Below are positions 1-64,000 of a stretch of DNA of 64,000 bases, one piece after another; the first letter of the stretch is position 1, and every line of letters begins with the position of its first letter. Source of the DNA: Candidatus Saccharimonadota bacterium (lineage in GTDB: Bacteria; Patescibacteriota; Saccharimonadia; Saccharimonadales; JAQGHD01). The DNA is taken from assembly GCA_028288965.1 (NCBI GenBank), contig JAQGHD010000019.1:25202-89201 (forward strand), written 5' to 3'. The notes under the pieces were generated by a model. It was not told the origin of the DNA. It saw nothing but the letters and a program-made list of their open reading frames with translations, and made no database searches. The translations under genes were made by a program, and so were the position numbers.

Positions 1-298
1 ATGGCAATGTTGCTTCCGGCTCAGCAGTAGGATGATAGCCACCAGCAATCACTTTATCGCGCCCGACTTTCTGGGAAAATTCTTTAAACTGTTTCCAGCC
101 CCGAGTATAGATTGAGCAAAGGTATAGGTCTATGTCTTCCTGAGAAACATTTCTTTCAAGAAACTCAACTTCAATGCCTGGTAAATCTGGTGCCATATAT
201 AAGACAGATGGTTCAAGCCGTTGGCCATGGACAGACAGCTCATCAGTGTGAGTATCTACAAACTCTGGGAATACCATTAAGCCCACTTTTTCTGCCAT
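1..298 (-). CDS. B12-binding-domain radical SAM-like protein, N-terminal part (runs off window start)
   Basis: Manual minus-strand translation from ATG at 298: MAEKVGLMVFPEF...DLYLCSIYTRGW...KVIAGGYHPTAEPEATLP. The frame is open to base 1. VIAGGYHPT is the typical cobalamin-binding domain motif of class B radical SAM enzymes. Not in the ORF track. Confidence 0.7.
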   Translation of the reverse strand, partial: MAEKVGLMVFPEFVDTHTDELSVHGQRLEPSVLYMAPDLPGIEVEFLERNVSQEDIDLYLCSIYTRGWKQFKEFSQKVGRDKVIAGGYHPTAEPEATLP

Positions 299-1265: not shown

Positions 1266-1791
1266 TAATCACGAAACACAAAGTAATACAGTTGGCCTAG
1301 TACTTGGACGCTTCCAGCCACTACACCCGGGCCACTTGGAGCTTATTCGGTCCGCTATGGATGAGTGTGATGAAGTAGTCGTATGCATTGGTTCAGCACA
1401 ACTAGCCGAACCGTTTACCATAGATGAGAGACACGATTACCTTAATCGTCAATTAGAAGTACTTCACCCCGATAAGAAATGGCGAGTAGTTGATTTAGTC
1501 GACCCTGAACCTATGGACATTTGGCCAGAGTACGTTAAAGAAAAGTGCGGTATTGAAGGCGAAGAACATAGGTTTTATCGTGCTGACAAATTATCTGAAG
1601 TTTATGAGGACAGACTTAAGAAACTTGGCTTTGCCCTAGCTTATATCACCCGTTCTCCATTTTATTTCTGGTTTTCAGATGGCCTGCATCGCCGAGTAAG
1701 CTCAGCAACAGAAATAAAAGCAATCTACGAAGAGCTGGGTCAACCCATACCTCGATCATTTGTTCAAGCTAAAGAATCTGAGAATAAATAG
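1249..1791 (+). CDS. Cytidylyltransferase-family (NMN adenylyltransferase-like) nucleotidyltransferase
   Basis: GRFQPLHPGH (HxGH), IGSAQ, PFT..ER, C-terminal SSATEI. Confidence 0.85.
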   Translation: MTEQASNHETQSNTVGLVLGRFQPLHPGHLELIRSAMDECDEVVVCIGSAQLAEPFTIDERHDYLNRQLEVLHPDKKWRVVDLVDPEPMDIWPEYVKEKCGIEGEEHRFYRADKLSEVYEDRLKKLGFALAYITRSPFYFWFSDGLHRRVSSATEIKAIYEELGQPIPRSFVQAKESENK

Positions 1792-1850
1792 TAACACTAT
1801 CTTAATCGTATATTATTGAGTGGAGTGGAGTTATACACTTAAGTTGGGCC

Positions 1851-1894
1851 AGTTGATACAACCAACACTATGGCCCTCCAATCCGGTTATGCTT
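1851..1894 (+). repeat. Inter-cassette repeat copy 1
   Basis: agttgatacaaccaacactatggccctccaatccggttatgctt. Confidence 0.85.
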
Positions 1895-1923
1895 AAATCG
1901 TTTTGCTATACTGAAGTTAACCT

Positions 1924-2391
1924 ATGAATTCCGTAGAAAAAGTTAAGTACCTCATTGAGAATAATGTCTTTATGGTAATTGCCACTGCAGATAGTACCGG
2001 CAAGCCATGGATCTCTCCTGTGGGCTTTACGTATGATGACAGCTACAACCTATATTGGGTTTCATATAAAGAAGCTCTTCATTCAAAGAATATTATCTCC
2101 AGGCCGGAAGTAGCCATTACCATATTTGGTCAGATGCCTGACAAGTCATATGACGGTGTTTATATTGACGCGACTGCCACTGAACTTGATAACGAAGCTG
2201 AAATTCAAATCGCAATAGATGAGTTTGCTAAGCGCTCCCAGGACTCAAAGTTTACAGTTGAATCAATTGCAGATGTTACCGACAATGCAGCCTGGAGAAT
2301 GTATAAAGCAGTGTCTGTGCACATCTCAAAACGGGCCGACGATACTATTAATGGTCAAGCAATAACAATACGCGAGCCAGTTGAATTCTGA
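1924..2391 (+). CDS. Pyridoxamine 5'-phosphate oxidase-family (FMN-binding split barrel) protein
   Basis: MVIATAD..GKPWISPV, HSKNI..RPEVAITI. Confidence 0.85.
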   Translation: MNSVEKVKYLIENNVFMVIATADSTGKPWISPVGFTYDDSYNLYWVSYKEALHSKNIISRPEVAITIFGQMPDKSYDGVYIDATATELDNEAEIQIAIDEFAKRSQDSKFTVESIADVTDNAAWRMYKAVSVHISKRADDTINGQAITIREPVEF

Positions 2392-2396
2392 ATCCC

Positions 2397-2441
2397 AGTA
2401 GCAACAGCGTCTACCGTGGCCCTCCAATACTGCTTATGCTT
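2397..2441 (+). repeat. Inter-cassette repeat copy 2
   Basis: agtagcaacagcgtctaccgtggccctccaatactgcttatgctt. Confidence 0.85.
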
Positions 2442-2498
2442 GCGTTGAGCAACATAACGCAGTACTTTATGTTCAACATCCACTAACGGGAGGCAGTT

Positions 2499-2915
2499 GT
2501 GATTGAGGCATTTAGAAAGTTACGTCCCGTCCTTGGCCTGACCTTAGCATTGGGTTTGGGAGCAACTGCTTGTGGTGATAGTCCACAAGACGTCACTAAA
2601 AGCGACAAAGCTATCATCACTTCCATCGCAGCAAGGAACGGATTGGCTGTTAACCCTGAAGGTTGGGACACAAGCGCCGTCAATCCAAATACCGTTGCTC
2701 TAGCAATTAACCTTGGCGCTTGCACCCTTCAAGGTTATGCTATTGCAGATATAGACAATAATAACAACGTGACAGATATTGAAAATTTTGGCTTTAACCG
2801 CACTGATGCTTTTGGGCATGAGGTTGCATTCAATTTCAATAGTTTGCAAGATTTGAAAGCTAATCTGCTAGGGCCTAACCCATGTCGTACACTGGCTGCC
2901 AATCGTAATGGTTAA
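2499..2915 (+). CDS. Hypothetical lipoprotein
   Basis: Signal peptide with lipobox-like ATAC, GGGAGG RBS before the GTG start. Confidence 0.7.
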   Translation: MIEAFRKLRPVLGLTLALGLGATACGDSPQDVTKSDKAIITSIAARNGLAVNPEGWDTSAVNPNTVALAINLGACTLQGYAIADIDNNNNVTDIENFGFNRTDAFGHEVAFNFNSLQDLKANLLGPNPCRTLAANRNG

Positions 2916-2925
2916 GCCGTTAGTC

Positions 2926-2967
2926 GTTGCGTTTGAGCATCACCGTGGCCTCTAATCCCACTTATAC
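2926..2967 (+). repeat. Inter-cassette repeat copy 3
   Basis: gttgcgtttgagcatcaccgtggcctctaatcccacttatac. Confidence 0.85.
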
Positions 2968-3005
2968 AAAAAACAACTTTCGGCCATTTTTGTTATGATA
3001 ATCCT

Positions 3006-3389
3006 ATGAACACTTTGCCACCCCCATTTGATAGCTTTCGTCTAGAAAAGAGACCCGGAGAATATAAAGATTTCCAAATTGAAGATGGCGATCCATATCC
3101 ACTGAAAGGTGTTACTTTTCCCACAAACTATGGTGATATTGCAGGATATACAGGCGAAGATAATCATCCTCTCGATCTGTTTATTGGTACAGGCGAATTG
3201 TTAGGCTACATTATAATGTATCGTCCAGACATCGAAGGTGACTTAGAGCATAAATTTTATTTGAATCTCACCGAGGACGAAGAAACTTCAGTACTAAAAG
3301 AATTTGAGCCAGTTCTACGAGGCCATGGGCGATTTAAGTCATTGGATGAACTTCAAAAAGCTATCGAACCATTCAAAGATAAAAGCTGA
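3006..3389 (+). CDS. Inorganic pyrophosphatase-like protein (family I, short)
   Basis: FPTNYGDI.GY.GED.HPLDLF motif. Confidence 0.7.
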   Translation: MNTLPPPFDSFRLEKRPGEYKDFQIEDGDPYPLKGVTFPTNYGDIAGYTGEDNHPLDLFIGTGELLGYIIMYRPDIEGDLEHKFYLNLTEDEETSVLKEFEPVLRGHGRFKSLDELQKAIEPFKDKS

Positions 3390-3393
3390 ATCG

Positions 3394-3440
3394 TAGTTGC
3401 GTTTTTAGCATCACGATGGCCCTCCAATCTGGTTATGCTT
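3394..3440 (+). repeat. Inter-cassette repeat copy 4 (closest to consensus)
   Basis: tagttgcgtttttagcatcacgatggccctccaatctggttatgctt. Confidence 0.9.
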
Positions 3441-3473
3441 GTAATATGGAGTCGTTAACACTATTGTAAAGCT

Positions 3474-3911
3474 ATGACTGAACAAACCAATCAAGCTGGG
3501 CAAGCGCCTATGGGTTTTGAAACCTTTTTGGCGAGTGCACTAACGCAAGGCTTTGAATCTAATGATAGAGCGATGAGACAGTGGGCCGACCATACGGCGC
3601 GCGAACTTGGCAAAGGCCTGTTATTTCTTTTTGCAAATCGCGAGGATTTAGCAGTTGATGTTCGTCAAACTCTTCCATCTGCCATGCATACATTTTTTGA
3701 AAGATTGCCACGCTGGGTCAAATTTGATGACCTGCCATATTTTGCAGAAGAACTTCAGGAACTTCCCGCAGAAACGCGCGATATTGTTGAAGCACACATA
3801 CATTACGTAGATTTAACTAATATAAATGCACTGCCACCAGGCACAACTCCTGGATATTCACCAGCAGAAGCTTGGCAGAGCGCATTAAGCGTATTAGAAA
3901 CAGACACCTAA
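3474..3911 (+). CDS. Hypothetical protein
   Basis: 145-aa ORF filling the space between two repeats. Confidence 0.7.
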   Translation: MTEQTNQAGQAPMGFETFLASALTQGFESNDRAMRQWADHTARELGKGLLFLFANREDLAVDVRQTLPSAMHTFFERLPRWVKFDDLPYFAEELQELPAETRDIVEAHIHYVDLTNINALPPGTTPGYSPAEAWQSALSVLETDT

Positions 3912-3920
3912 ACTATCTTA

Positions 3921-3967
3921 TAGTTGCGTTTTTAGCATCACGGTGGCCCTCCAATATCCTTGTGCTT
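3921..3967 (+). repeat. Inter-cassette repeat copy 5
   Basis: tagttgcgtttttagcatcacggtggccctccaatatccttgtgctt. Confidence 0.9.
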
Positions 3968-4009
3968 TTGTAATTTTAACCACTAAGTTCATCTGGTATA
4001 GTTTAGCCT

Positions 4010-4273
4010 ATGAAACGATTGAATAATGCCAGACTGCTAGTAGCATTATTAGGTGTCATCGTAGTACTGGGAGGACTCGGCGTTCGAGCACTAGTTAGGA
4101 GTAGGGCGAAACTCACTCTTACTAGTTATGAAACTACCAATGGTTTGATATATGAATGCTCCAGACCCATAAAAGCCAAACCTGGAACGGTAGCCCACGG
4201 GCATCGCCAAGGACCAATACCTTATAATCAATCTGATGCTGATAAATATTGTCACAACATTGGCATAGAGTAA
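4010..4273 (+). CDS. Small membrane-anchored hypothetical protein
   Basis: N-terminal TM helix, two Cys, TGGTATAGT extended -10 just before the ATG. Confidence 0.7.
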   Translation: MKRLNNARLLVALLGVIVVLGGLGVRALVRSRAKLTLTSYETTNGLIYECSRPIKAKPGTVAHGHRQGPIPYNQSDADKYCHNIGIE

Positions 4274-4320
4274 TTTAAGACAAATGTAATTGAGTCACTC
4301 TCGCTGTATTGAGCACATTG

Positions 4321-4365
4321 AGTTGCGATAACACTGACCATGGCCCCCCCATACTGCTCATGCTT
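4321..4365 (+). repeat. Inter-cassette repeat copy 6
   Basis: agttgcgataacactgaccatggcccccccatactgctcatgctt. Confidence 0.8.
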
Positions 4366-4419
4366 GCATCAAATGTAATAGGGGTACAATATATCTAGAG
4401 AAGATGATAGGAGGTATTT

Positions 4420-4902
4420 ATGTCAGAGAATCCAGCAAGCGCATTGCGAAAGACTACAAGTGAGTCTCGAGCTAGCAGCGTGACTCGTGCGGCAGAGGCA
4501 GAGGAATGGGACCGACGAGAAAAAGCGAACGAGAGAAAGCGCCAATCAAGGGCCGCCAATCGATTTGCCGATGAACAGCTTGAGGTCACGATCGAAAGTC
4601 TTACAGGGGAAATGCAAGCTATCGCTGAGTACGAAGGTGATTCTGTTACGAAAGAGTGGACAGCTTACAGCAAACGATATGGCATGGTTGATCAACAAGA
4701 ACGAGCTAACCACAGGACGCTCAGAAGAAAGGTGGCTGAACACTTCACAGGCCTGAACTTTGCTGTTGAGCTTTTTGAACACACCGCAAGAGAGCAGGAC
4801 CCGCGTATACCGCTAAGTGATGGATATAGTCCGGAGCACCCACCAATGCGTGATATTGGGCTGGTGACGGGGATCGCTATATCATGGGCTGATCAAGAGT
4901 AA
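4420..4902 (+). CDS. Hypothetical protein
   Basis: AGGAGG RBS, 160-aa charged ORF. Confidence 0.7.
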   Translation: MSENPASALRKTTSESRASSVTRAAEAEEWDRREKANERKRQSRAANRFADEQLEVTIESLTGEMQAIAEYEGDSVTKEWTAYSKRYGMVDQQERANHRTLRRKVAEHFTGLNFAVELFEHTAREQDPRIPLSDGYSPEHPPMRDIGLVTGIAISWADQE

Positions 4903-4980
4903 ACTCGGCGAGCTCGATAGTGTTTTGATCCCTTATCGAAATTTTGTAAACAAGTAGTTTTATCTTATACTCCAGACAAT

Positions 4981-5397
4981 ATGAAAAGGCCTATTACAGT
5001 TGTCATGGCTTCCTCTCTTGCTGTTTGCTATTCGGTCGTATTAGTAGGTGTCGCCATAGCTCTAATGTACGATTACTTAGGTTCACACGGTCATATTGGT
5101 AGTGAGCACCTAGTGGGCACAGCAGCGCAAGGGCTCAAATTTACAGTTGGCATGCTCCTCGTTGGCAGCGTTCTGTTGGCTGCCGGAAGCTACAGATTAC
5201 TGGTTAAGCGTAGGCAAGTACTCCTCATAGCACCGCTTAGTATTTTATTTGTGATTGGTTGCATTGGCGAGACTGCTGATGCTTTAGGGACAGCGTCTTT
5301 ATCCAGTAATCTTATTGGGGCTGGGATTCTCATCCTGATAGTGCTTCCTGTTGGTCTTCTACTCACAACCAGTGGCAGATTATGGACAAAACAATAA
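4981..5397 (+). CDS. Hypothetical 4-TM membrane protein
   Basis: Four hydrophobic segments, TATACT -10 upstream. Confidence 0.7.
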   Translation: MKRPITVVMASSLAVCYSVVLVGVAIALMYDYLGSHGHIGSEHLVGTAAQGLKFTVGMLLVGSVLLAAGSYRLLVKRRQVLLIAPLSILFVIGCIGETADALGTASLSSNLIGAGILILIVLPVGLLLTTSGRLWTKQ

Positions 5398-5561
5398 CTT
5401 AAAAGTAGTCCCAAAAAGCAAGAAAAACAGATTATACATCCATTTTTTATTGGCTGGCTAATGGTGTTGTGTTGGGGTTATTTATATCATGGGACTTTAC
5501 TTAGGCTTGATTCTTCTTGTAACAATCCGCGACATACACAACTTCTTTCTATAAAGCGTAC

Positions 5562-5604
5562 GTTGGGATAACCATCACCGTGTCTCTCCAATCCAGTTAT
5601 GCTT
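5562..5604 (+). repeat. Inter-cassette repeat copy 7
   Basis: gttgggataaccatcaccgtgtctctccaatccagttatgctt. Confidence 0.8.
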
Positions 5605-5653
5605 GCATGTCGAATAATATCGTCACATAATGCTTTCTAACTAAGGAGGGGTT

Positions 5654-6205
5654 ATGTCTAGCAGCGAAGAACTTTTCAGAACGGTGGGTGAGTTAGTGGG
5701 AATGCGAAAAGATATTGTTGAGCCTAGTTTGATTGAACTCCGAGAAGGTTATTTAGCCAATCCAAGGCAGAGAATTGAAAAAGTTACAGCCGCCCACCCG
5801 AATACTCCAAGCGTGACCAGCGTCAGCGGTAATTCGGCAATCTTCGTCAATGAGCGAGGCAGAATAAAACAAAAACAAGTGTTTGGCACCGGTACCGCAC
5901 ACTTCCTACGTCCGATCGATCATAGAAATCCATGGATTGCCATATATCCATATGGCATCGAAAATGTTACCTCTTCGGGATCACCTATTTTTCATGACCC
6001 GGACACTAACAGAATGAGAGCTATTGCCCTGGAATATCCGCAAAGGAATCGCTCACTACAGTGGCTACAGTACCCTGTTGAACCATTATTTAATGTTGAT
6101 GAGGATGGAACTGTTCTTGCACGGTTTTCTGACCAACCGACACCTGCTGAACTCCAATTATTTTACGATATTCTTGAGCAATTCGAAGCTGCCATTGTAA
6201 CCTAG
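5654..6205 (+). CDS. Hypothetical protein
   Basis: AAGGAGG RBS. The TAG stop is the first part of the next repeat. Confidence 0.75.
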   Translation: MSSSEELFRTVGELVGMRKDIVEPSLIELREGYLANPRQRIEKVTAAHPNTPSVTSVSGNSAIFVNERGRIKQKQVFGTGTAHFLRPIDHRNPWIAIYPYGIENVTSSGSPIFHDPDTNRMRAIALEYPQRNRSLQWLQYPVEPLFNVDEDGTVLARFSDQPTPAELQLFYDILEQFEAAIVT

Positions 6206-6237
6206 TTGCGTTTGAGCATCACTGGGGCTGTCCAAAG
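6203..6237 (+). repeat. Inter-cassette repeat copy 8 (right arm diverged)
   Basis: tagttgcgtttgagcatcactggggctgtccaaag. Confidence 0.8.
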
Positions 6238-6275
6238 CATAAGCACTTTCACATTTCTGGTATTATAGAATTGAT

Positions 6276-6653
6276 ATGCCAAACAAAAAACTTGTAGATA
6301 CCATACTTGGTCTACTCGTAGTGCAGTTTATCCTAGGCATGCTGGCTAATCTTTACGCGACCCTTCCGGAGCAAAAGGTTTATGAAGTTTTTCACCAACT
6401 TGGTTTTATTACTCTGCACGCCGTAAATGGCACGCTGCTGCTGGTACTAGGGATAATACTTCTGGTCAAATCACGTAAAACTCGTGCCTTTAAACCGGCT
6501 ACAGGTGGCCTTGGAAATATGGTTCTGGCATATATATTTGGCGAACTGTTTGTCTTTACCCAGCGCGACATTTATTCATTGTTGATGGCCCTAACGTTCA
6601 TTGGCGCCTTACTTTCATATGCTCGGCTTGCTTTTTCAAATCAAGCTAGATAA
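6276..6653 (+). CDS. Hypothetical 4-TM membrane protein
   Basis: Four TM segments, VQFILGM..NLY, LHA..G. Confidence 0.75.
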   Translation: MPNKKLVDTILGLLVVQFILGMLANLYATLPEQKVYEVFHQLGFITLHAVNGTLLLVLGIILLVKSRKTRAFKPATGGLGNMVLAYIFGELFVFTQRDIYSLLMALTFIGALLSYARLAFSNQAR

Positions 6654-6795
6654 AGAGTAGATCCCTTAGCAGCCACAGCCAATACAACGACCTTCAAGCC
6701 TGATTATGATTAAGGTTTTCCAATGAAAATGAGCTAGCAATAAGAAGCTCGCTGACTATGATTCTCTATCCTGGGGCATGTCTAAGAGATCCTAG

Positions 6796-7296
6796 TTACT
6801 CATCAATTTCAGAACTATAGTCAATTGGGTGCAGCCCTGTAGCTCCACGCTGCATTTCCTTATAGAGTAATTCTCTGTCGTCATCTGTGGGTTGAGATAA
6901 ACCAAGCTTATCGTCTACTCTACTGGGAAACACTATCCTTGCCATTTCCCGGAATGAGCCAGATATTACCATATTGCGATAAATGTCTATACAGCCAATA
7001 TCATCGATATCCATTTTGAATGTTACCACTTCGATGCCGGTCTCGCCTGGATGATGGAGTAGCCTTAAGATAGTGGGCTTAAGGGTCAGCGGGGAAGTGC
7101 CATTGCGCAACCCTTGGTCAATCAAATGTGCTGCGCCACCTTCTTCTGTCTGCCACTGCGCATAAGCCGTTCCAAAGGTAAAACGACCGAGTCGTTTTCG
7201 TCGTCCCATCCAATGTGACTCAACAAGAGCTGCATCCCGATAGACACGCAGATGCTCTAAGTATTGATTGCCATGCAAGCTGAAAGGTAAACTCAT
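6796..7296 (-). CDS. Hypothetical protein (start probably MSLPF at 7296)
   Basis: AGGAG RBS before the ATG at 7296. Confidence 0.6.
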   Translation of the reverse strand: MSLPFSLHGNQYLEHLRVYRDAALVESHWMGRRKRLGRFTFGTAYAQWQTEEGGAAHLIDQGLRNGTSPLTLKPTILRLLHHPGETGIEVVTFKMDIDDIGCIDIYRNMVISGSFREMARIVFPSRVDDKLGLSQPTDDDRELLYKEMQRGATGLHPIDYSSEIDE

Positions 7297-7410
7297 TACA
7301 CTCCTAATGCCTCCAATATTTTCATGTAGACATAAAAGAAGCAAGCACAGGCACTATATGAGAAACCTAAGAATCAAGTGTAGTAGGTTTATATGCATGA
7401 AATTGATTAG

Positions 7411-8376
7411 TTAGGCTGCGCTAGACTTTAAGATCACATTAGGTTCTCCAGCTTCGATAATAGTAACTGGATCGCCGACCCTTACGAGGTACCTAAGTCC
7501 TGGGATAAATTTATGATTTAGACTTTGGGCAAAGAATGGTTCTGCTTTGCTAGAAGTATCTTCCCCGAGTGCCCAACCCATTCTTGATCGCAAAATTTTA
7601 GTAGCTAACCTTTGGGAGTCATCGCCAGTAGTTTGATTAAAGTTAGGTACTGGACAGCGAGCCAGAGCTTTAATGACGAAGACTGGTATACTGCCGAGCT
7701 CAGCCGTGCGAATTGTATCTTCGCCAAATGCTCCTAGGGCCGAGCCTTTTATATCAACATTGGCCCGGAAGTTAATTAAAGGAACTGTTCCTCGTGGCAA
7801 TCCAGTTAGGTCATGAAGATAATTCAAAGAAGCTTGGCTTGCTAGGGAAACCGGTCGCCCATCTGCACCGGCTGCCCGATTTACAGCACCATCTCTTTGA
7901 TACTTTTGGGGCAACACTCTGGAGCGATTAGGGTCAGCTCGCCATAGCTTTACTGATCGACTAATTAAACTCGAAAAGAAATTGCTAGCTTCTGCTCCTT
8001 CAGCTAAGACTGGTAAATCAGGGCCAAAAATTCGAATGTTTGCTTGTTTAGTCTCTGGCTCTTCAAAGGCTATGTCAACAGCTCCATGACCAGGCGCACT
8101 TATAGCTAAGTGATCCGATTGAATGTCGATCGCAACTGTAGCCAACATACGATCTTCCCGGTACTTACGGGCTTGGCTTTCATCCCAACCGCGTTGTGAA
8201 ACAAATAAGTTGTCAGGATTGGCCACTACCCAGCCCCTATCCGCAATTTCACCGTACTTTAGGCCTGTGGAACCGGCTTCTAGTTCAACTATAGTTTTGC
8301 CATGTGCGGTTGCTTCTTGACATGACTTTATAGGATACAAATGCACCGCCTGAACATAATCTATACTTTCGTTCAT
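7411..8376 (-). CDS. MOSC-domain protein (YcbX-like)
   Basis: LYPIKSC, DRGW, FRANV, RCPVPN. Confidence 0.9.
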   Translation of the reverse strand: MNESIDYVQAVHLYPIKSCQEATAHGKTIVELEAGSTGLKYGEIADRGWVVANPDNLFVSQRGWDESQARKYREDRMLATVAIDIQSDHLAISAPGHGAVDIAFEEPETKQANIRIFGPDLPVLAEGAEASNFFSSLISRSVKLWRADPNRSRVLPQKYQRDGAVNRAAGADGRPVSLASQASLNYLHDLTGLPRGTVPLINFRANVDIKGSALGAFGEDTIRTAELGSIPVFVIKALARCPVPNFNQTTGDDSQRLATKILRSRMGWALGEDTSSKAEPFFAQSLNHKFIPGLRYLVRVGDPVTIIEAGEPNVILKSSAA

Positions 8377-11679: not shown

Positions 11680-11756
11680 TTGTATAGGCAATAAACTAGG
11701 GGTACAGCTGCGATGACCTTCACGATGGCTGGCTAATCGCTTATACTAATAGGCAT

Positions 11757-12467
11757 ATGAAGCTCAAACTCTCGGCTCTTGTTGGCTTAATACTCACCGG
11801 CGTATTTGTATTGAGCAGTACCGCTCTGGCTCAAGGTATATACACGGCTGGATCGACCGGTGTTGATATATCATGGCCAAATTGTCGGGCCAAGGTGCCA
11901 ACCAGCGCCAAGTTTGGCATTGTGGGCGTAACCAACGGGCTGGGCTACTCCACTAGTCCTTGCCTAGTTAGTGAGGCAGCGCATTTTTCTAACCTAAGTT
12001 TTTATGTAAATACCGGCTGGAACAGCAGTTCTACGCACATTAACCCTACCAGCCCGCGGCTGTGTGCCGCCGCCGATAATAATTGTTTGGCCTACAATTA
12101 CGGCTATAACGCCGGACTTTATGCTTATAATGCGGCGTCTAGTGCCGGGCTGCACAGCACTACTTGGTGGCTCGACGTAGAATCGAATAATACCTGGTCC
12201 ACTGATGCCTTGCAGAATCAGAATAGCCTACTTGGTGAGCATGATGCATTGCTTGCCAGCGGCGTAGCAATCGTTGGGGCTTACAGCACCACGGCTATGT
12301 GGAACAGTATTACCGGCAGCTGGTTGAACAACTGGCCATCATGGGGTGCGACTACCTGGAAGACCGCTAACCAAGCCAAAACCTACTGCACCGGCCACCA
12401 GTTTACCGGCGGAACCACCTGGTTAATCCAATACCAGGGCCAGCTCGACCAAGACGTGGCTTGTTAA
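11757..12467 (+). CDS. Secreted glycoside hydrolase-like (GH25/DUF1906-type TIM barrel) protein
   Basis: Signal peptide, GVDISWPNC, WWLDVE, GAYS, QY..DQD. Confidence 0.7.
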   Translation: MKLKLSALVGLILTGVFVLSSTALAQGIYTAGSTGVDISWPNCRAKVPTSAKFGIVGVTNGLGYSTSPCLVSEAAHFSNLSFYVNTGWNSSSTHINPTSPRLCAAADNNCLAYNYGYNAGLYAYNAASSAGLHSTTWWLDVESNNTWSTDALQNQNSLLGEHDALLASGVAIVGAYSTTAMWNSITGSWLNNWPSWGATTWKTANQAKTYCTGHQFTGGTTWLIQYQGQLDQDVAC

Positions 12468-41723: not shown

Positions 41724-41776
41724 TTCGCTTTCGCTCTTTTGAGCTCATCAGTATGAATACACATTCATAAAACGAA
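41724..41776 (-). ncRNA. Type III hammerhead ribozyme (copy A)
   Basis: Minus strand: UUCGU-U-U^ UAUGAAU-GUGU-AUUCAUA CUGAUGA GCUC-AAAA-GAGC GAAA GCGAA. Predicted cut between 41770 and 41769. Confidence 0.85.
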
Positions 41777-41900
41777 AACGACAAATAGACAGAGATAAAG
41801 ATACACAAAGCAGCCAGGGAGGTGGCAAGGCTTTGATATATCAATATCACTGCCTATTTGCCATTCTCGCTTTACCGAGAACTTTTCTCGACCGTCAGTG

Positions 41901-42566
41901 TCAGTTGGCGTCCTGCACAATAAACCCAAACGTCAGGTCATCTTGGTCGCGGAGGTAAGGGAACAGACCCACGTAGGAGGTGCTCAAGCGCCCGGCCGCG
42001 ATCTTGCTGATGACGCTTTCCAGGTGCTGTTTTGCCCGATCTACGTCTGTAACGCGCGTGTCGATGTCCAAGGCTGCTGCCCGGAGTTCGAGCACGTAGC
42101 CCTTGACACCGTCTAGGTCTGTCAATTCGATGGCTACTTGCCTGGTTGCGTCAGCGAAAGCCTGCTGGTCCATGATCTGTTTGGTGATGTGGCTCATTGG
42201 CGTGAACCTTGCAAGGTTGCTGTTGAAGGTGATGATCACCCGGCGGAATGGCCATTCTGTCTGCGGTGTTGCGAGAACACGCTTGTCTCCACGCAAGGGG
42301 AACAAGTCCAACAGATTCTGGGTCGCCCAATCGATGGTAACCTGAACCCACTCTGCAACGGCAGCTGAATTCGTGACGTTGTCACGATACTCAACCGACA
42401 TGTCAAAACGGTTGATGTTGCAGCCAAAGACGCCGTCATGTTGCATAATGCGACCCCTAAGGGGCAGCACTGCATCGCGGTGATCCTCTGAGTTAAAGGT
42501 GCCTGTCTCTTCGTTGATTCCGGTTATAGCCGTATTGAATTCGAACGTGAGAGTCTGATTGGTCAT
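41901..42566 (-). CDS. Hypothetical protein with two similar ~100-aa alpha/beta repeats
   Basis: AGGAG RBS, internal repeat (FEFNT../ITFNS.., HDGV/LDGV, LFPLRG/LFPYLR). Confidence 0.75.
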   Translation of the reverse strand: MTNQTLTFEFNTAITGINEETGTFNSEDHRDAVLPLRGRIMQHDGVFGCNINRFDMSVEYRDNVTNSAAVAEWVQVTIDWATQNLLDLFPLRGDKRVLATPQTEWPFRRVIITFNSNLARFTPMSHITKQIMDQQAFADATRQVAIELTDLDGVKGYVLELRAAALDIDTRVTDVDRAKQHLESVISKIAAGRLSTSYVGLFPYLRDQDDLTFGFIVQDAN

Positions 42567-42686
42567 GTTGGCTCCTGCTTCAACTCACCTGACTGTTTGT
42601 CCCAACTGACGTTGGCGCGTATCCATAATGAACACACAAAGTGAGATACCAAGACGCATGGGTGTCCTAGTAACTCACTTTGTGTT

Positions 42687-42773
42687 TCTGTCTATTTGTC
42701 AAATAACACCTTTGGAACCCATTGGCTCAACAAAAGCAAACATTATATTACCATATAATCATAAAAAAGTCCA
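42687..42773 (-). promoter_or_regulatory. Promoter, conserved 5' hairpin, boxA-like motif and leader strand (unit A)
   Basis: TGGACT(42768-73)-17-TAATAT, 44-nt block 42696-42739 repeated at 43497-43540, TGTTATTTGACAA, 42687-42700 is a perfect inverted repeat of 41780-41793. Confidence 0.75.
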
Positions 42774-42792
42774 CAATCTGTTTGGACGGTTA

Positions 42793-42843
42793 CCGCTTTC
42801 GCTCTTTTGAGCTCATCAGTATGAATACACATTCATAAAGCAG
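42793..42843 (-). ncRNA. Type III hammerhead ribozyme (copy B)
   Basis: Minus strand: CUGC-U-U^ UAUGAAU-GUGU-AUUCAUA CUGAUGA GCUC-AAAA-GAGC GAAA GCGG. Predicted cut between 42838 and 42837. Stem III differs from copy A but still pairs. Confidence 0.85.
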
Positions 42844-42946
42844 AAATGACGACCAGACAGGAGTTTAGGGTAGAGGGATGACCACAAGGGTCAAACGTCT
42901 AGTTTCCTAAACTGCTCCCTGATGGTCATTTTTGCGCGCGATAACG

Positions 42947-43378
42947 CTATCCGTTATCGCACAAGCGTGGGGTCTGTTGAGACGCCGGCAGCTTGTTGAA
43001 ACTGAGGATGTTCTTGAACGACGAGAAGAGCGGCACACGCCAACCCTTGATTTGCACGCTGTACGTCGTCTCGGGCTGGATCTTGCCGTAGGCGTCGGCA
43101 GTGTTAAACCGTGTCTTGCCGAACAGCGAGTCCTTCATGACAAACGTGCCACCACTGGTGTAGATGCGGTATTCGCCGCCGTTTTGGGTAGCTACGCGCT
43201 CCTTGCTGCACACCGTCAGCACGCGAGTGCTGATGTGGTTGTAGTTGTGGAAGATGGCAGAGATGCCGACTACGAGGGCCAAAACGACCGCCGCAATGGC
43301 AACTGCACAACCCGCGCCCTGGAAATTCTCTCGACGACGAGCCCGATACTGGTTCGCATCACTAGTTCTCATGGACAT
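42947..43378 (-). CDS. Membrane-anchored DUF1523-like protein (phage-associated type)
   Basis: TM helix then TV.SKER..YRIYT..GTF..KDS..RFN.AD.YG......Y.....GWRVP.FS.F.NI, AAAGGAAG RBS. Confidence 0.65.
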   Translation of the reverse strand: MSMRTSDANQYRARRRENFQGAGCAVAIAAVVLALVVGISAIFHNYNHISTRVLTVCSKERVATQNGGEYRIYTSGGTFVMKDSLFGKTRFNTADAYGKIQPETTYSVQIKGWRVPLFSSFKNILSFNKLPASQQTPRLCDNG

Positions 43379-43489
43379 AGGGTCTTCCTTTCTCCTCTCC
43401 TCGGCATACAGCCTAAGGTGTTTATCCTAAACACACAAGGTGAGGAACAAAAGTACAATAATTATACGTTTGGTGCTCACCTTGTGCTT

Positions 43490-43574
43490 TGTCTGGTTGT
43501 CAAATAACACCTTTGGAACCGATTGGCTCAACAAAAGCAATGTAGATAATAACATAAAAATGCGCAAAAGTCCA
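43490..43574 (-). promoter_or_regulatory. Promoter, conserved 5' hairpin, boxA-like motif and leader strand (unit B)
   Basis: TGGACT(43569-74)-17-TATTAT, same 44-nt block, 43490-43501 pairs 11/12 with 42848-42859. Confidence 0.75.
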
Positions 43575-43607
43575 CATCTCTACAGATGTGCATGCTACAC
43601 TAGGCTC

Positions 43608-58779: not shown

Positions 58780-58854
58780 GGCCCCTTCGTCTAACGGTTA
58801 GGACACCAGGTTTTCATCCTGGCAACAGGGGTTCGATTCCCCTAGGGGTCACCA
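58780..58854 (+). tRNA. tRNA-Glu (TTC)
   Basis: Acceptor GGCCCCT/AGGGGTC, anticodon arm CCAGG-TTTTCAT-CCTGG, T-loop GTTCGATTC, encoded CCA. Confidence 0.95.
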
Positions 58855-60406
58855 CAAGAGACTCATCATTTGATGGGTCTTTTTTGTTGGCTTCGTACTG
58901 ACGTTCTATATCTGATGTTTCCTGTAAAATAGGGCTGAGAATTGCGGTTCCAAAAGACTTATCTGGATTTACGACAATTCCAGCCTCACAAATGGCGTTT
59001 TGGAACCGCTGCTGGTCATTTAGTTCCGCAGTACGCCACGCAACAGGGAGGTTTACTAGAAATGACACTGCCTGATCTACTATTTGCTCATTGCGAGCCT
59101 CTGTGTCTTTTAACTCGTTTCTAGCGACCTCTAACTCTACTCGCTGGATTGCGAGCCGGCTCTCCTGCTCCTGATAGGTCTCAGCCGGTATTATGTCCTT
59201 GAGGAACTTATCCATTAGGCTATTCTTCATGTCCTCGGCATTTTTGAGCTGTTGGTCGATCTTGCGTCTTTCTAGTTGGGCATCTACAAAGTCGTTGTTC
59301 CAACGCCGCAGCACCACTTGCTTGAATATTTCAGGCACCCAAGACGCTGGTTCTGCTTTGGCGAGTAATGCCTCGAATTGTTCATGAGCTTTTAACTTGG
59401 GTATTCGGACAGTGTTGCCGGTAGCCTTGCGAGTACAGGTGGTGCAGTGATACGCAGCAAAATGTCCTGTCCTGCCTTTTGAGGCACTTGCAGTCAGTGG
59501 CTTATTGCAAATGCCACAGATTAAAAAACCACGAAGCGGATAGGCTGGTTTATTTCGTGGCAGGCTAGATTTTGGTCGTCCTTTACCGTCTAATATGCTT
59601 TGATTGAGCAAATAGTGGTCGAGCGTAATGACCGGCGTATGAATCCCTTTAATGCGTACACCATCTGAAAGATCATTCTGAATGTAGCCAGCATATACAG
59701 GGTTCCGAAGAAGTTTGATTGTTCCATTTCTCGAAATGGGATCGTTGCCTTTACCACAAATACCATGCTTATGAGCAAGCTCTACGGCTTGAGTCTGAGT
59801 GTAATTTCCAGTGGCAAACTCAGAAAAAAAGCCGAACAATTTCTCGGCACTTTCAGTAGTGATCGCTAGCGTTGGTCTCTTTGCTACATCCTTGATGTTA
59901 ATATAGCCAGCCGGTGCTTTACTGACCCAACAGCCCTCTTTCACTCTTGCTACCATACCTCCACGAGACCTTTCGGATCGCACGTCATTATCGAACTGTG
60001 CAAAGCTGGCAAGTACGTTTTCTAGCAACATGCCAGTGGTGGTCGAATCAATCGGTTCGGATGCTGACCAAAGAATGATGTCCAACTTCTTGAGTAACGC
60101 CCTGAGAGCTGAATGGTCAGCTACCTTTCTGGAAAATCTATCGACCTTGTAAACGACTAGATGTCCGATTGTTTTGCGGTTGGCGAGACAAAACTTTAAC
60201 AACTCTTGCAGCTCAGTACGATCTGCGGTTTTGGCACTTTCGCCTTCCTCGGTGAACTCCTTAATTACCGTCAATTCTTTTAGCTTACAGAAGTCTTTGC
60301 AGATACGCAGTTGTTCACCGAGACTCATATTATCAACCTGTCGGTCACTTGATACTCGTGTGTATATCACGGCACCAGTTTTGACGTTAGGTAGTTTCTT
60401 CTTCAT
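58814..60406 (-). CDS. Large serine recombinase (resolvase, recombinase and Zn-ribbon domains)
   Basis: YTRVSS..Q, ESAKT.DR, DRFSR, LRNPVYAG, CGIC..YHC..C, coiled coil. The 3' end overlaps tRNA-Glu. Confidence 0.95.
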   Translation of the reverse strand: MKKKLPNVKTGAVIYTRVSSDRQVDNMSLGEQLRICKDFCKLKELTVIKEFTEEGESAKTADRTELQELLKFCLANRKTIGHLVVYKVDRFSRKVADHSALRALLKKLDIILWSASEPIDSTTTGMLLENVLASFAQFDNDVRSERSRGGMVARVKEGCWVSKAPAGYINIKDVAKRPTLAITTESAEKLFGFFSEFATGNYTQTQAVELAHKHGICGKGNDPISRNGTIKLLRNPVYAGYIQNDLSDGVRIKGIHTPVITLDHYLLNQSILDGKGRPKSSLPRNKPAYPLRGFLICGICNKPLTASASKGRTGHFAAYHCTTCTRKATGNTVRIPKLKAHEQFEALLAKAEPASWVPEIFKQVVLRRWNNDFVDAQLERRKIDQQLKNAEDMKNSLMDKFLKDIIPAETYQEQESRLAIQRVELEVARNELKDTEARNEQIVDQAVSFLVNLPVAWRTAELNDQQRFQNAICEAGIVVNPDKSFGTAILSPILQETSDIERQYEANKKDPSNDESLVVTPRGIEPLLPG

Positions 60407-60476
60407 AGTTCACCTCTAATTCTGACCCGATGGGTCGGTTAATTCAATAACCTATCGTGGGATTTGGAACCGGCAT

Positions 60477-60641
60477 TTATTCCTTAACTTGCAGATCCTT
60501 TTTAGCTTGTTTTATATAGATTTGAGCCATGATGTCGAGCTGGCGAATCACCTCTACGACTTGTTCATCGGAGATTTGTGCGGAGGCGAATCCAGTTAGG
60601 CTCCTGAACTCCTCGATTGTGATGATTGCCTGCTCGTTCAT
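60477..60641 (-). CDS. Small 54-aa protein upstream of the recombinase
   Basis: MNEQAIITIEEFRSLTGFASAQISDEQVVEVIRQLDIMAQIYIKQAKKDLQVKE, below the ORF-track cutoff. Confidence 0.6.
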   Translation of the reverse strand: MNEQAIITIEEFRSLTGFASAQISDEQVVEVIRQLDIMAQIYIKQAKKDLQVKE

Positions 60642-60701
60642 GACACTGGAAGTCTAAGGCAGACGAAGAATTAGCTGTGATTGTCGATAATTGTCGGGGG
60701 G

Positions 60702-61490
60702 CTAGGCGGTGATCCCTAGATGTGCGGCTATCTTTCCTCGATAATGTTCGTTAATCTTCGATACAAGTTCAATTATTTGCCTGCGGTTCAATACGCTAGG
60801 ATTCTGTAAGGCAATATGCTTCTTATTTAATACCGGCAGCATAGGTGCCAGCCATAAGTAATGATTCTTAGTCAGTAGTTGCTTGAAGTCGAGGTCGTCA
60901 TCAAGCGGTGCAAAATCGATAGCGTTAAGCGGCTGACCTGATGGCATCTTTTGCAGCTGTGTCAAAAGTTGCGGTACCATTCCCTCTATCGGTCGTGCCA
61001 CCTGAAAATCTTCGTTATTGATGCTTAGCATTAACTTATTGTCTCTTTGCCATAGCTTGCAAACGTATTCTGTCGGTGCCGGTGCGACATGTCCTGTTTC
61101 CATGATAAGTTTGTCGAACAGCCGTTGGAACGTATATGGCGTGATATCCAGCATCACTTCATCTGATAGCTCACGATAGTCGATATGGAATCCCATCGGT
61201 ATCTTCGCTGGGTTCAGTAGCGTACCGTCACGATAGATTGCTGAAACATCAATACATAATTCTCGGTATAGCTTGAAAATCAGCATCCATTGCATCTCTG
61301 ACGACTGCGGTGCCAGCCCAAGTGCTGTAAAAAGAGGTGCAGTCTGGTCGAGGTGTAGCCACACCTGGTTGGTCTTTACACCAATCTCCTCGCTTTCATG
61401 GAGTGAGTGCTGGGCAAGAAGCACTCGCATAAAATCGAGCAATAGGGTATCAATGTCAGCTGGGCTGACTTTGGATTCGCCTCCGGTCAT
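60702..61490 (-). CDS. Hypothetical protein
   Basis: 262-aa ORF co-oriented within the island. Confidence 0.65.
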   Translation of the reverse strand: MTGGESKVSPADIDTLLLDFMRVLLAQHSLHESEEIGVKTNQVWLHLDQTAPLFTALGLAPQSSEMQWMLIFKLYRELCIDVSAIYRDGTLLNPAKIPMGFHIDYRELSDEVMLDITPYTFQRLFDKLIMETGHVAPAPTEYVCKLWQRDNKLMLSINNEDFQVARPIEGMVPQLLTQLQKMPSGQPLNAIDFAPLDDDLDFKQLLTKNHYLWLAPMLPVLNKKHIALQNPSVLNRRQIIELVSKINEHYRGKIAAHLGITA

Positions 61491-61547
61491 AAGCTAATTA
61501 TACAATAATTTTACTTCTCGTAATTATGATTATGAGAAGTAACAAGC

Positions 61548-62378
61548 TTATTTGCTTGAGAAATCGAGTCCAAGATGACCATTTTTGCGTGAGATAAGCT
61601 CATCCTTTGAGATCTCGGTATGGCTTACTAACTTGTAATGCCGCTCGTCAACCACACTAAGGCGTAATATTTCATCCTCTTCAACGACAGCCAACTCAAT
61701 AGCGGCAACCTCGTTTGTACTGACAAACATGAACGCCAGCGGTCTGCATATTGCTTCTGGGTATTTCAGATTACAGAAGGTAAGATCTTGGATTACTTGA
61801 ACGATGCCGAAGCGGTCACCTGGTGACTTAGCTTGAATTGGTAAGACGTAATTCACACCGGTGCGGTCTATGCCGACATAAAATTCGTCAATCTCAATCT
61901 GTCCGATGCTTTCAACCGTAGTTCGTAAATGATTCTGTACCGAGTAGCAGGTTAAGCCGGTGAAAGTATCGATAAGGCGGTTGTATCTGACTCTTGCAAG
62001 CAGTGCTTGCTCATCACGACCAGCCGCATAGTGCTTGAGTATCTCTGGTGTAGAGTCAGGTATGCTCAGATTTATAAGATTAGGATTCGGAGACACTTTG
62101 CCAGGAGCAGCCAGTCGAAACTCGTAATTTGCTATACCACTGCCCACAATAATCCATTCCGCTCCTGCCGGTGCGGTCTTCTGGATCGATTCTGGCAGTT
62201 CTTTTCTGAACCGGAAACTGTATGTTATATCGCCGAGATTTCGGATTCGAGGGATTTCTAATTCATCACATGCAGCAACAAGGTCTTCTCTATGGAAGGC
62301 TAAACGCTTCAATCCCACTTGGTACTTCTTGTGGAATATCAATGCTATTATCTGGCTGTATTTGCTGCTTTTTTCCAT
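61548..62378 (-). CDS. Putative type II restriction endonuclease (PD-(D/E)XK-like)
   Basis: QIEIDE...PIQAK, directly downstream of and overlapping a C5 methyltransferase. Confidence 0.7.
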   Translation of the reverse strand: MEKSSKYSQIIALIFHKKYQVGLKRLAFHREDLVAACDELEIPRIRNLGDITYSFRFRKELPESIQKTAPAGAEWIIVGSGIANYEFRLAAPGKVSPNPNLINLSIPDSTPEILKHYAAGRDEQALLARVRYNRLIDTFTGLTCYSVQNHLRTTVESIGQIEIDEFYVGIDRTGVNYVLPIQAKSPGDRFGIVQVIQDLTFCNLKYPEAICRPLAFMFVSTNEVAAIELAVVEEDEILRLSVVDERHYKLVSHTEISKDELISRKNGHLGLDFSSK

Positions 62379-63657
62379 CTAGGGCTATAAGTCTTTTCCG
62401 AATTGGGATGATTCCTCTGTCAACGCTGAAAAACGCTGCTGCGTCTGTCATATTGAATTGTAGAAGCTTTGCATCCTGTTTGTCCAGCTCATAGACCGGT
62501 AGATCACTTGGATTGATGCCCAATTTACGAATAACCTCGTCACCGAGTGCTTTCCCGAACATCGGAGCCACGGCATTGCCTATCTGGCGGAAACCATGCC
62601 AAACAGTTCGATGAAACTGAAACCAATCAGGGAATGAGTGCAGTCTAGCCGCTTCTCTAATGGAGATACAGCGAGGGAGTTTATAGTGGATTGGTCGGGG
62701 TGCAGTATGAGCGCCCTTATCGCTTGTCGTGCCAGCCCTCAGTGTGTTGCAGGGTCGGTCAGGGTGTAAGCGAAAGAATCGGCTGGTAGTTTCCGTAGTG
62801 CCTGGCTCGGTGTCGATAAAGCGGTCGATAGATATTTGACCATGCACGGAGCCAACATGCCCCCATAAAAGTCCATCAGTCTGTCGAATATGACAAAGAT
62901 TGAACAGTGAGCCTTCGTGCCGGTTATAGTTCTTACGGTACTCGTGATCATAAGTTAGGTTGTTCGGTAAGCCCTTATCATTCTTGATATTGACTGGGAT
63001 ATCTTCAAGATCTCCGATTGCACTCTTTGCCCCTACAAATGCAGTCGAATCGAATAAGCTTACGACTTTATCACTCTTCTCTATATGCGTAGGATCAGGA
63101 TACTTCAATTCAGGCATATCACCCCGACTTCCCAGAATAATAAGCCTTCGTCGCTTCTGCGGTACACCATAGCTGGCTGCACTTAACACCTTGATTTGTT
63201 TATGTATCTTGTAGCCGAGCTTCTCACACTCTTCAACCAGCTCCTCAACAAACTTAATCTGCTTGCCGGCAATCATGCCTGGCACGTTTTCAAGCAAGAA
63301 GTACTTCGGTCGTAAATCTTTCACGACACGCAGATACTCGAATACAAGCTTGTTGCGAGGATCATCGAGTTGACGCTTGCCAATGGTAGAGAACCCCTGG
63401 CAGGGCGGTCCACCTACAAGCATATCCAGCTCGTCATAACCCTTCTCTTGCAGGGCTTTTTTGAGTTCGATAGTCTCAAGCTTGTTCATGTCGGTACAGA
63501 AGGTTTTCGAGTAAGGAAAATTAAACTCATGAGCAGCTGCATGAACAGGATCAAACTCAACGGCGGCAACAACATCAAAGCCTGCTGCCTCAAAGCCTAG
63601 CGACAATCCGCCGACACCGGCAAACAAGTCAATAACAGATGGTCGTTTTCCCCTCAT
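62290..63657 (-). CDS. DNA (cytosine-5)-methyltransferase
   Basis: DLFAGVGG, GGPPCQGFS, ENVPG, PQKRRR, REAARLHSFPD, QIGNAV. Confidence 0.95.
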   Translation of the reverse strand: MRGKRPSVIDLFAGVGGLSLGFEAAGFDVVAAVEFDPVHAAAHEFNFPYSKTFCTDMNKLETIELKKALQEKGYDELDMLVGGPPCQGFSTIGKRQLDDPRNKLVFEYLRVVKDLRPKYFLLENVPGMIAGKQIKFVEELVEECEKLGYKIHKQIKVLSAASYGVPQKRRRLIILGSRGDMPELKYPDPTHIEKSDKVVSLFDSTAFVGAKSAIGDLEDIPVNIKNDKGLPNNLTYDHEYRKNYNRHEGSLFNLCHIRQTDGLLWGHVGSVHGQISIDRFIDTEPGTTETTSRFFRLHPDRPCNTLRAGTTSDKGAHTAPRPIHYKLPRCISIREAARLHSFPDWFQFHRTVWHGFRQIGNAVAPMFGKALGDEVIRKLGINPSDLPVYELDKQDAKLLQFNMTDAAAFFSVDRGIIPIRKRLIALDGKKQQIQPDNSIDIPQEVPSGIEAFSLP

Positions 63658-64000
63658 AGTACTTCTATTCTATCAGTTTTCATGGCTACCAACGATAAGC
63701 GTATTCACATTTGATGGGCAAACCGGAAGTAAAGAGGGGAAGATTTTGCTAAACGTGCTGGAACGGAGCCATGTTTTCCAGAGGTGGCGAAATCTGGCAG
63801 TCAGCTTTATGCTGTTTTTTCCTGTTATTTCCTGTTCAATATAAAGGCTGATGCTGTTGTTTCCTTTACACGTCATACTAGAACTTTCTCAAATATATGA
63901 TCATGCTTAGGAAAGTTCTTAGCTTGCATGACGGTATCGTTGTAGGTTTGTAACTGTTCGAGGCTCCGGTGTCGTGTGAAGCTCATTATCATAAACAAAT

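Follow-up and report, generated by a model that had tools for sequence, protein, structure and literature searches.

A tRNA-anchored array of small gene units in a Candidatus Saccharimonadota genome, probably stacked by a large serine recombinase

The genomes of Patescibacteria are tiny and rich in genes of unknown function, and the routes by which these bacteria gain genes are poorly known. A locus in a Candidatus Saccharimonadota bacterium (order Saccharimonadales; assembly GCA_028288965.1; 916 kb) raises this question directly. We analysed a stretch of 64,000 nucleotides (contig JAQGHD010000019.1, here C15, positions 25,202-89,201; hereafter the window), near the start of which unrelated small genes alternate with copies of a repeat of about 45 bp. 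A preliminary description of the window had proposed an array that captures genes through repeated site-specific insertion, the recombinase being encoded elsewhere. What is the repeat, which enzyme acts on it, and how did the genes come to stand in a row? The general idea of gene capture is supported by the results given here. What the description missed is the anchor of the array, a tRNA-Lys gene, and the likely enzyme, a large serine recombinase (LSR) rather than an integron-type tyrosine recombinase. We propose, with a probability of roughly 0.6 and from sequence comparison, that the repeat is the attachment site of a tRNA-Lys-specific LSR, which would have stacked the units one by one behind the tRNA.

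A profile of the eight window copies was searched against the contigs of the genome and then iterated. The first profile found 15 more copies at E<0.01, all on the + strand of C15 and upstream of the window; the iterated profile found 27 copies at E<0.01 (C15:12,779-31,458), and a further, weaker one, the 28th (E 0.036), is obvious on inspection. The best matches on other contigs had E values of 0.26 and 1.9, respectively, and with no copy of the repeat outside C15 a genome-wide regulator site is rejected. The array spans 19.5 kb, from C15:12,399 to about 31,900, and comprises 29 mostly one-gene units with 28 clear sites and one trace. It begins upstream of the window and is three times larger than the segment 1851-6711 first described, whose nine genes are its far (distal) end. 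The median unit length is 527 bp; 26 of the 29 units hold one listed open reading frame (ORF), one holds three, one holds two and one has none of at least 60 aa. Four units contain a reverse-strand gene, so the genes are not all co-oriented as had been claimed. GC content is 42% in the array against 48% genome-wide. Most of the cargo is unknown: four of the 20 genes upstream of the window have a Pfam match (EamA, NUDIX, radical SAM and a weak PsbP-like match), and Pfam and family scans of the array genes matched no recombinase. The earlier remark that many genes have their own -10 box agrees with a count of -10-like hexamers: 20 of 30 sites are followed by one within 80 nt, whereas 24% of random array windows contain one. 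These windows are mostly coding and form a soft control.

The array takes its start from the CCA end of a tRNA-Lys(CTT) gene that lies upstream of the window (C15:12,323-12,399), and the tRNA defines the centre of the repeat: the core, TGGCCCTCCA, is the last ten bases of the tRNA, and 17 exact copies lie downstream of it. Each site consists of a shared left arm (AGTTG-N2-A-N8-AC-NR), the core and a right arm. Over 203 sites, the right arms belong to class A (..GCTTATGCTT; 115), class B (AGCATAAGC; 16), an LSR-tail-like type (8) or none of these (64). Across all arrays, class B resembles a class A arm of which the inner 11-12 bases have been inverted where they stand. Within the present array, core mismatches increase with distance from the tRNA (rho 0.41, p 0.026, 29 sites).

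The resemblance to an integron does not extend to its machinery. The two tyrosine recombinases of this genome, which is 94% complete, score 137.8 and 26.7 bits against the integron integrase family TIGR02249 (cut-off 265). As the preliminary description had held, the repeat is not attC: the boxes RYYYAAC/GTTRRRY occur in none of the eight window copies. The inverted arms reported for the best copy, AGCATCAC-N17-GTTATGCT, are present; the hairpin that they brought to mind is not, as folding is no better than that of shuffles on either strand (z -1.7 to +0.7). With no IntI, no attC boxes and no stable hairpin, identity with an integron or a cluster of attC sites lacking integrases (CALIN) is rejected. 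A search of Rfam with window 1500-7500 gave no match over a family cut-off and one chance match (E 3.6).

Relatives point to the enzyme. In genome G392 an 8.5-kb element occupies slot 1 of a tRNA-Lys array and ends, on the far side, in a normal left arm plus core. The LSR of this element has 561 aa, with matches over cut-off to the Resolvase, Recombinase and Zn-ribbon domains, and its gene runs antisense across the core and on into the tRNA. With this protein as query, 99 of 401 genomes match at E<=1e-40, the present one not being among them. Among the best 30 of the matching loci, the top ten (45-100% identical) all end at a tRNA-Lys core, nine inside the tRNA and one in the arm of a later slot, and most of the others end in Asn, Trp, Gly, Tyr or Arg tRNAs. 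The islands of relatives that are closed by a left arm plus core measure 5.6-16 kb. They include six of the seven tRNA-Lys(CTT) islands with enough flank (G019, G161, G390, G392, L132 and L133; G030, cut by a contig end, was left out of the count) and one of five tRNA-Lys(TTT) islands (G197; G096 is likewise cut short). Both in G392 and in G019 the island stands in slot 1, before small units. A metagenome scan with the LSR alignment added three distant loci. Taken as an attachment (att) site, the repeat would be a sequence on which an LSR acts, and we consider this identity very probable. The association with a recombinase expected from the preliminary description holds for the same site in relatives and fails for this genome, in which searches with the G392 protein and with the LSR alignment found no Lys-specific LSR. 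Besides the two tyrosine recombinases, it encodes one LSR of 530 aa, about 24% identical, which ends in tRNA-Glu. Since a Lys-specific LSR is lacking now, the array would be static until an island returns.

A further link between repeat and enzyme lies in the left arm. Read antisense in the frame of the LSR tryptophan, it gives W-R-A-[IT]-V-[DLEM]-[ALVS]-[IV]-[AS]-T. In-frame stops occur in one of 180 left-arm sites, against 113 and 85 in the other two frames; these sites were chosen by consensus likeness, and DNA recognition could mimic part of the coding pattern. Of the 167 distinct alleles, one contains such a stop, whereas column shuffles average 8.1 and none of 1000 goes as low. In nearest-neighbour comparisons, 54 of the 99 changes are synonymous, where 28% are expected. 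The left arms evolve like protein code, as expected if they still supply the LSR tail. Class A right arms are non-coding, with in-frame stops in 81 of 113 alleles, and therefore no cassette reading frame enters the left arm. The constraint would therefore have to act when the arm adjoins the LSR gene, i.e. on an excised circle.

Whole units recur in other genomes. In a comparison of 192 units (median 630 bp) by blastn only, 20 pairs cover more than half a unit. For 12 cross-locus pairs of like length, which are not all independent (one unit is counted twice), identity in the flanks past the two sites is 0.50 and 0.52, the level of random pairs, and 0.77 inside the 3' end. Homologous units have unrelated neighbours in other genomes, and gene order is not fixed. 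Complete copies of unit 5 (C15:14,297-15,049), 76% identical from one core to the next, are found in G143, where the unit fills slot 1 at tRNA-Lys, and in G066, where it stands at tRNA-Val(CAC). These genomes belong to two families other than that of the present one; neither copy has an island beside it in 1.5-kb flanks. The G066 copy has a Lys-type arm, and its far core has G at position 3, as in Lys, and A at position 7, as in Val, a mixture that in this one case places a crossover in the CCC. Similarly, the PPase-like gene of the window has a homologue in G096 that lies at tRNA-Tyr and is accompanied by an arm and a core of Tyr type, and the PNPOx-like gene has one in G127, behind tRNA-Lys(TTT). 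Array DNA matches 48 of 400 other genomes (a tally that includes the unpublished G307, with some matches to the repeat only and many outside visible arrays). At L022:2,765-3,379 (oriented coordinates), a 204-aa cargo gene for a putative protein resembling a REP (repetitive extragenic palindromic)-associated Y1 transposase lies between two copies of a duplicated two-unit block.

The left-arm-plus-core motif, searched with one mismatch allowed, is present in 124 of 401 genomes of the order (including the unpublished G340, G342 and G352), and the reversed control pattern in none. The present genome has 18 matches and the next best has 10, and its array is the largest met with in the analysis. In a phylum sample, searched for the Lys motif only, it was found in none of 284 genomes outside the class and in one of two within the class but outside the order. 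A same-strand tRNA-Lys lies upstream in 36 of 42 relatives' loci, which were picked from the listed motif matches and are biased to multi-copy matches and long contigs; of the six others, one reaches a tRNA with a longer flank, and another starts at its contig edge, inside the end of a tRNA. Shorter arrays of this design, sharing the class A and B right arms, exist in this genome (G000) behind tRNA-Asn (C25, 23,776-23,850, - strand) and tRNA-Arg(TCT) (C9, 6,073-6,149), both with tRNA-specific cores and left arms of the W..V.EVRT type. Shorter arrays of arm-plus-core sites, also with tRNA-specific cores and left arms of this type, follow tRNA-Arg(GCG) (C22), tRNA-Met (C6) and tRNA-Gln(TTG) (C10). 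At L031:11,449-14,703, an LSR with a tail that crosses a tRNA-Gln-type core lies downstream of a Lys-type array, which in turn comes after two tRNA-Gln genes. In seven other loci (L015, L036, L044, L048, L051, L055 and L057), units of about 170-250 bp lie directly behind the tRNA and end in a longer piece of the tRNA T-arm, with no left arm; they are duplicated in L015 and L057 and are possibly a second small element type that recreates the entry site. A phage source was considered and is not supported: the only exact motif match in viral contigs (L020:10,001-10,029) has neither a tRNA nor a recombinase match nearby.

How could an enzyme encoded by large islands build a row of small units? In the mechanism that we propose, a visiting LSR island would integrate at the tRNA and would sometimes excise via a site further down the array. 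The excised circle would carry the adjacent unit or units, and the left arm of its attP would come from the last of these and would supply the C-terminal tail of the LSR (W-R-A-[IT]-V-x-x-I-A-T). Once this circle has integrated in another cell, with the crossover predicted in the CCC of the core, the island alone would excise; the unit would stay next to the tRNA, and older units would be pushed outward. We lean towards this cis route, in which units ride with a visiting island that then leaves them at the tRNA. It follows the known logic of accretion and accounts for the coding constraint on the left arms.

Several observations weigh against this proposal. No attR was found for the tRNA-Lys(CTT) island L135 in 11.6 kb of flank, nor for four tRNA-Lys(TTT) islands (G019b, G244, G296 and G292). 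The polarity of core decay is not significant when arrays are pooled (rho 0.16, p 0.065, 136 sites), and neither is the gradient of profile scores along the present array (p 0.11). Arms of neighbouring sites share 0.676 identity and those of non-neighbours 0.687; neighbours being no more alike, block transfer is not visible, and block-wise acquisition is unsupported. Since the arm alleles share ancestry, the p-values exaggerate the significance. In serine integrase sites, the distal motif is described as lying 5 bp nearer the crossover in attB half-sites than in those of attP (PMC3783163). The shift expected of an attB half-site was not seen in the left-arm matrix fits, and class A arms mirror the left arm at the same offset, -1, as do the right arms that the islands carry; scores were weak throughout. 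Internal sites of attR type with a 5-bp shifted right arm were tested and not supported, and the register test did not support the simplest form of the cis route. With no 5-bp shift, symmetric attP-like sites, and therefore free circles, are favoured. Canonical LSRs do not recombine such attP-like pairings without relaxed directionality. At the level of single units, the tRNA in G066 keeps its Val end, which needs a later correction. In addition, near-identical genes may have different arms (93% gene identity and 60% left-arm identity between L022 and L055). Recombination at the core alone cannot give such arm swaps, nor the Tyr-type shell in G096, and close gene pairs with different arms therefore imply a second process that re-shells genes.

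The first of the rival explanations keeps the enzyme and changes the vehicle. The same LSR could act in trans, each unit excising as a circle of 0.3-1 kb with a symmetric attP and re-inserting at the tRNA like an integron cassette. Class A arms without the 5-bp shift make such free single-unit circles a real rival, though an unlikely one in our estimate. It would fit the dyad symmetry that relates class A right arms to left arms, in the same register as the right arms of the islands. It would also fit the conserved non-coding right arm of 115 of 203 sites and the occurrence in G143 and G066 of one complete unit each at a tRNA end, without an island in 1.5 kb of flank. Additionally, TndX reportedly integrates and excises without a directionality factor (PMC5704250). 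However, movement in trans does not by itself explain why the left arms of units without an LSR are under coding constraint, and no transfer signal was identified in the units.

Each unit could also be the decayed and now immobile remnant of a separate LSR island, reduced to its last gene and attR. This is the standard origin given for cis-mobilisable elements (CIMEs) in PMC5704250. The left arms do look island-derived and are more alike within arrays than between them (0.676 vs 0.611, without this genome), and eight of 203 right arms have an LSR-tail-like reading. Most right arms, however, are a shared non-coding motif and not an LSR tail, a core plus class A or B arm precedes the last gene in none of six islands, and whole units recur across families, even at another tRNA. 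Since 29 independent near-total deletions, each stopping at the core, would also be needed, we regard decay as improbable.

Saccharibacteria may be naturally competent, and transforming DNA might have been integrated by host homologous recombination, with the tRNA as anchor, the core as microhomology and the LSR incidental. This would explain arm swapping near the TAGTT edge, and a 19-nt copy of the 5' end of tRNA-Lys does lie about 100 bp upstream of the gene (C15 ~12,221-12,240, outside the window). As an anchor, however, 76 bp is little, and the Lys-type unit at tRNA-Val and the coding signature of the arms point to the LSR, which leaves this explanation very improbable. Action of a tyrosine recombinase on the repeat, be it the host XerA-like protein or an integron integrase, is disfavoured and hardly credible: one chromosomal XerA-like gene exceeds the NF040815 cut-off (229 vs 220) and the right arm, which reads TTATG(C/T)TTAAA, resembles a XerD arm, but the arrays lie 26, 32, 140 and 361 kb from dnaA in four genomes, the palindromic dif-like pattern is not clearly above its control (19 vs 15 in five single-contig genomes), 43 array-centred sequences gave no tyrosine recombinase match, IntI is missing in this genome, and the window copies have neither attC boxes nor a hairpin. 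With no fixed terminus position and this dif-like count, a chromosomal dif or Xer module is likewise unsupported, and a Xer role, if there is one, might be limited to creating or re-shelling units.

In the window, the eight repeat copies and nine genes of the preliminary description are all present, and the features of the array lie on the + strand except the first. Unit 21, with three genes, opens with a B12/radical-SAM gene of 422 aa (PF04055), the 5' part of which occupies 2..298 on the - strand and which extends upstream of the window; an NAD-dependent epimerase (PF01370; 354..1265) and a cytidylyltransferase-like gene (PF01467; 1249..1791) follow. The att-type repeat at 1851..1897 (core TGGCCCTCCA at 1871-1880, class A right arm) leads to the PNPOx-like cargo gene (1924..2391), the repeat at 2397..2442 (core 2417-2426) to a lipoprotein-like gene (2499..2915; labelled from its sequence, no Pfam match), and the repeat at 2926..2968, with a core at ~2945 that is degenerate by a one-base deletion, to the PPase-like gene (3006..3389; PF18823 below cut-off). 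Two cargo genes without a Pfam match come next: one of 145 aa (3474..3911) after the repeat at 3395..3442 (core 3417-3426), and one of 87 aa with a hydrophobic N-terminal stretch (4010..4273) after that at 3922..3967 (core 3944-3953). The repeat at 4321..4366 (core 4341-4350, 2 mismatches) precedes a two-gene unit (4420..5397) encoding a protein of 160 aa and a 138-aa membrane protein; there is no site between them, as had been noted for the gap at 4903-4980. After the repeat at 5562..5606 (core 5581-5590, 2 mismatches), a gene for 183 aa (5654..6205) overlaps with its stop codon the left arm of the next repeat, at 6204..6245 (core 6225-6234, 3 mismatches, class B right arm), behind which a 125-aa membrane protein is encoded (6276..6653). 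The trace of a repeat reported near 6686 corresponds to a possible decayed last site (6667..6711), where the profile match, at ~6687, is not significant (E 0.62). The repeats end 27-57 bp before the next start, much as described, and they begin within 12 bp of the upstream stop at five of the eight window sites.

Further along, an isolated degenerate copy of the repeat (11699..11758, + strand, E 4.8e-6) lies 5 kb beyond the array. Two pairs of direct repeats, of 67 nt (90%) and 87 nt (80%) and about 0.8-1.1 kb apart, occur among predicted surface-protein genes at window 41,726-43,576. From window 58,780 to 64,000 and beyond (C15:83,981-94,460) extends an LSR island at tRNA-Glu(TTC). Its 530-aa LSR reads into the tRNA, and it also holds a gene labelled DNA methylase-like from its sequence, the second tyrosine recombinase and, about 10.4 kb out, an arm plus core.

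To which known systems does the array belong? Integrons and CALINs are long rows of one-gene units with stops abutting the site and the newest unit at a fixed entry site. The present array shares the long row of mostly one-gene units, here exchanged between genomes, the stops abutting the site, the newest unit next to the entry site, and a mostly unknown cargo (16 of the 20 upstream genes are without a Pfam match). Unlike integrons, it lacks IntI, attC boxes and the hairpin, a tRNA serves as its entry site, and a -10 box of their own seems to come with most units. The array works in the manner of an integron and is to be grouped with the LSR islands that occupy the 3' ends of conserved genes: an LSR is tied to the same site in relatives, though not in this genome, and the 3' end of the target is repeated in tandem at element boundaries.

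The closest known systems are the ssrA islands of Dehalococcoides, the staphylococcal and enterococcal cassette chromosomes (SCC and ECC) and CIMEs. In the ssrA islands (PMC3146451), the reverse-strand LSR gene dsiB stands next to attL, overlaps the target RNA gene with its 3' end and has its stop outside the island. The LSR genes of the Lys islands overlap attL in the same manner. Moreover, tandem ssrA islands are separated by repeats of the target end, and 15 lack the integration module and are read as cis-mobilisable. The ssrA islands differ in having a tmRNA target, a 20-bp repeat and several genes, with a size overlapping that of SCC, whereas here tRNA 3' ends are used with a 10-bp core, and the units have a median of 527 bp, mostly carry one gene, stand up to 29 in a row and share a non-coding right arm. 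SCC and ECC (CcrAB, target rlmH) resemble the array in their dyad-symmetric att repeats of about 50 bp, placed at the 3' terminus of a conserved gene, in several attR per locus and in variable cargo (PMC6222049). They differ by fewer than five att matches in ECC genomes, an example element of 32 kb, a protein-coding target and two recombinase genes. CIMEs, which lack an integrase, keep attL and attR, travel with a neighbour and accrete at tRNA 3' ends, and here too integration genes are missing and att sites are kept. PMC5704250 describes CIMEs as decayed integrative and conjugative or integrative and mobilisable elements and ascribes tRNA-end targeting to tyrosine recombinases, unlike the serine recombinase and the uniform small units recurring across families found here. 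The array differs from known LSR islands in target, unit size, unit number and standard right arms. We found no description of such arrays in Saccharibacteria in the literature, subscription papers and supplements being outside the scope of the search, where an island table could mention them. In term counts, the main text of a paper on gene exchange in 125 such genomes (PMC12455944) is without the words integrase, recombinase, cassette, integron and tRNA.

Tentatively, and with less than even confidence, these features may be combined into a broader picture, in which Saccharimonadales would run a second, independently evolved integron. The 3' ends of tRNAs would be its entry sites and a family of tRNA-specific serine recombinases its integrase. 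Sub-kilobase, promoter-bearing cassettes with standard right arms would circulate between families and tRNA loci, and the left arm would be an interchangeable C-terminal tail of the recombinase, so that the enzyme would be completed by the site just used for excision and might thereby switch between excision and integration. If this is true, an integron-like cassette system has evolved from serine chemistry. These LSRs appear to insert repeatedly at a conserved tRNA end without destroying the target, which, to our knowledge, canonical one-shot serine integrases do not do. The system would also offer a delimited set of mobile small genes to screen. With a site present in at least 31% of the sampled genomes of the order, a named enzyme, a target and a predicted crossover, the question of how these bacteria gain genes becomes testable.

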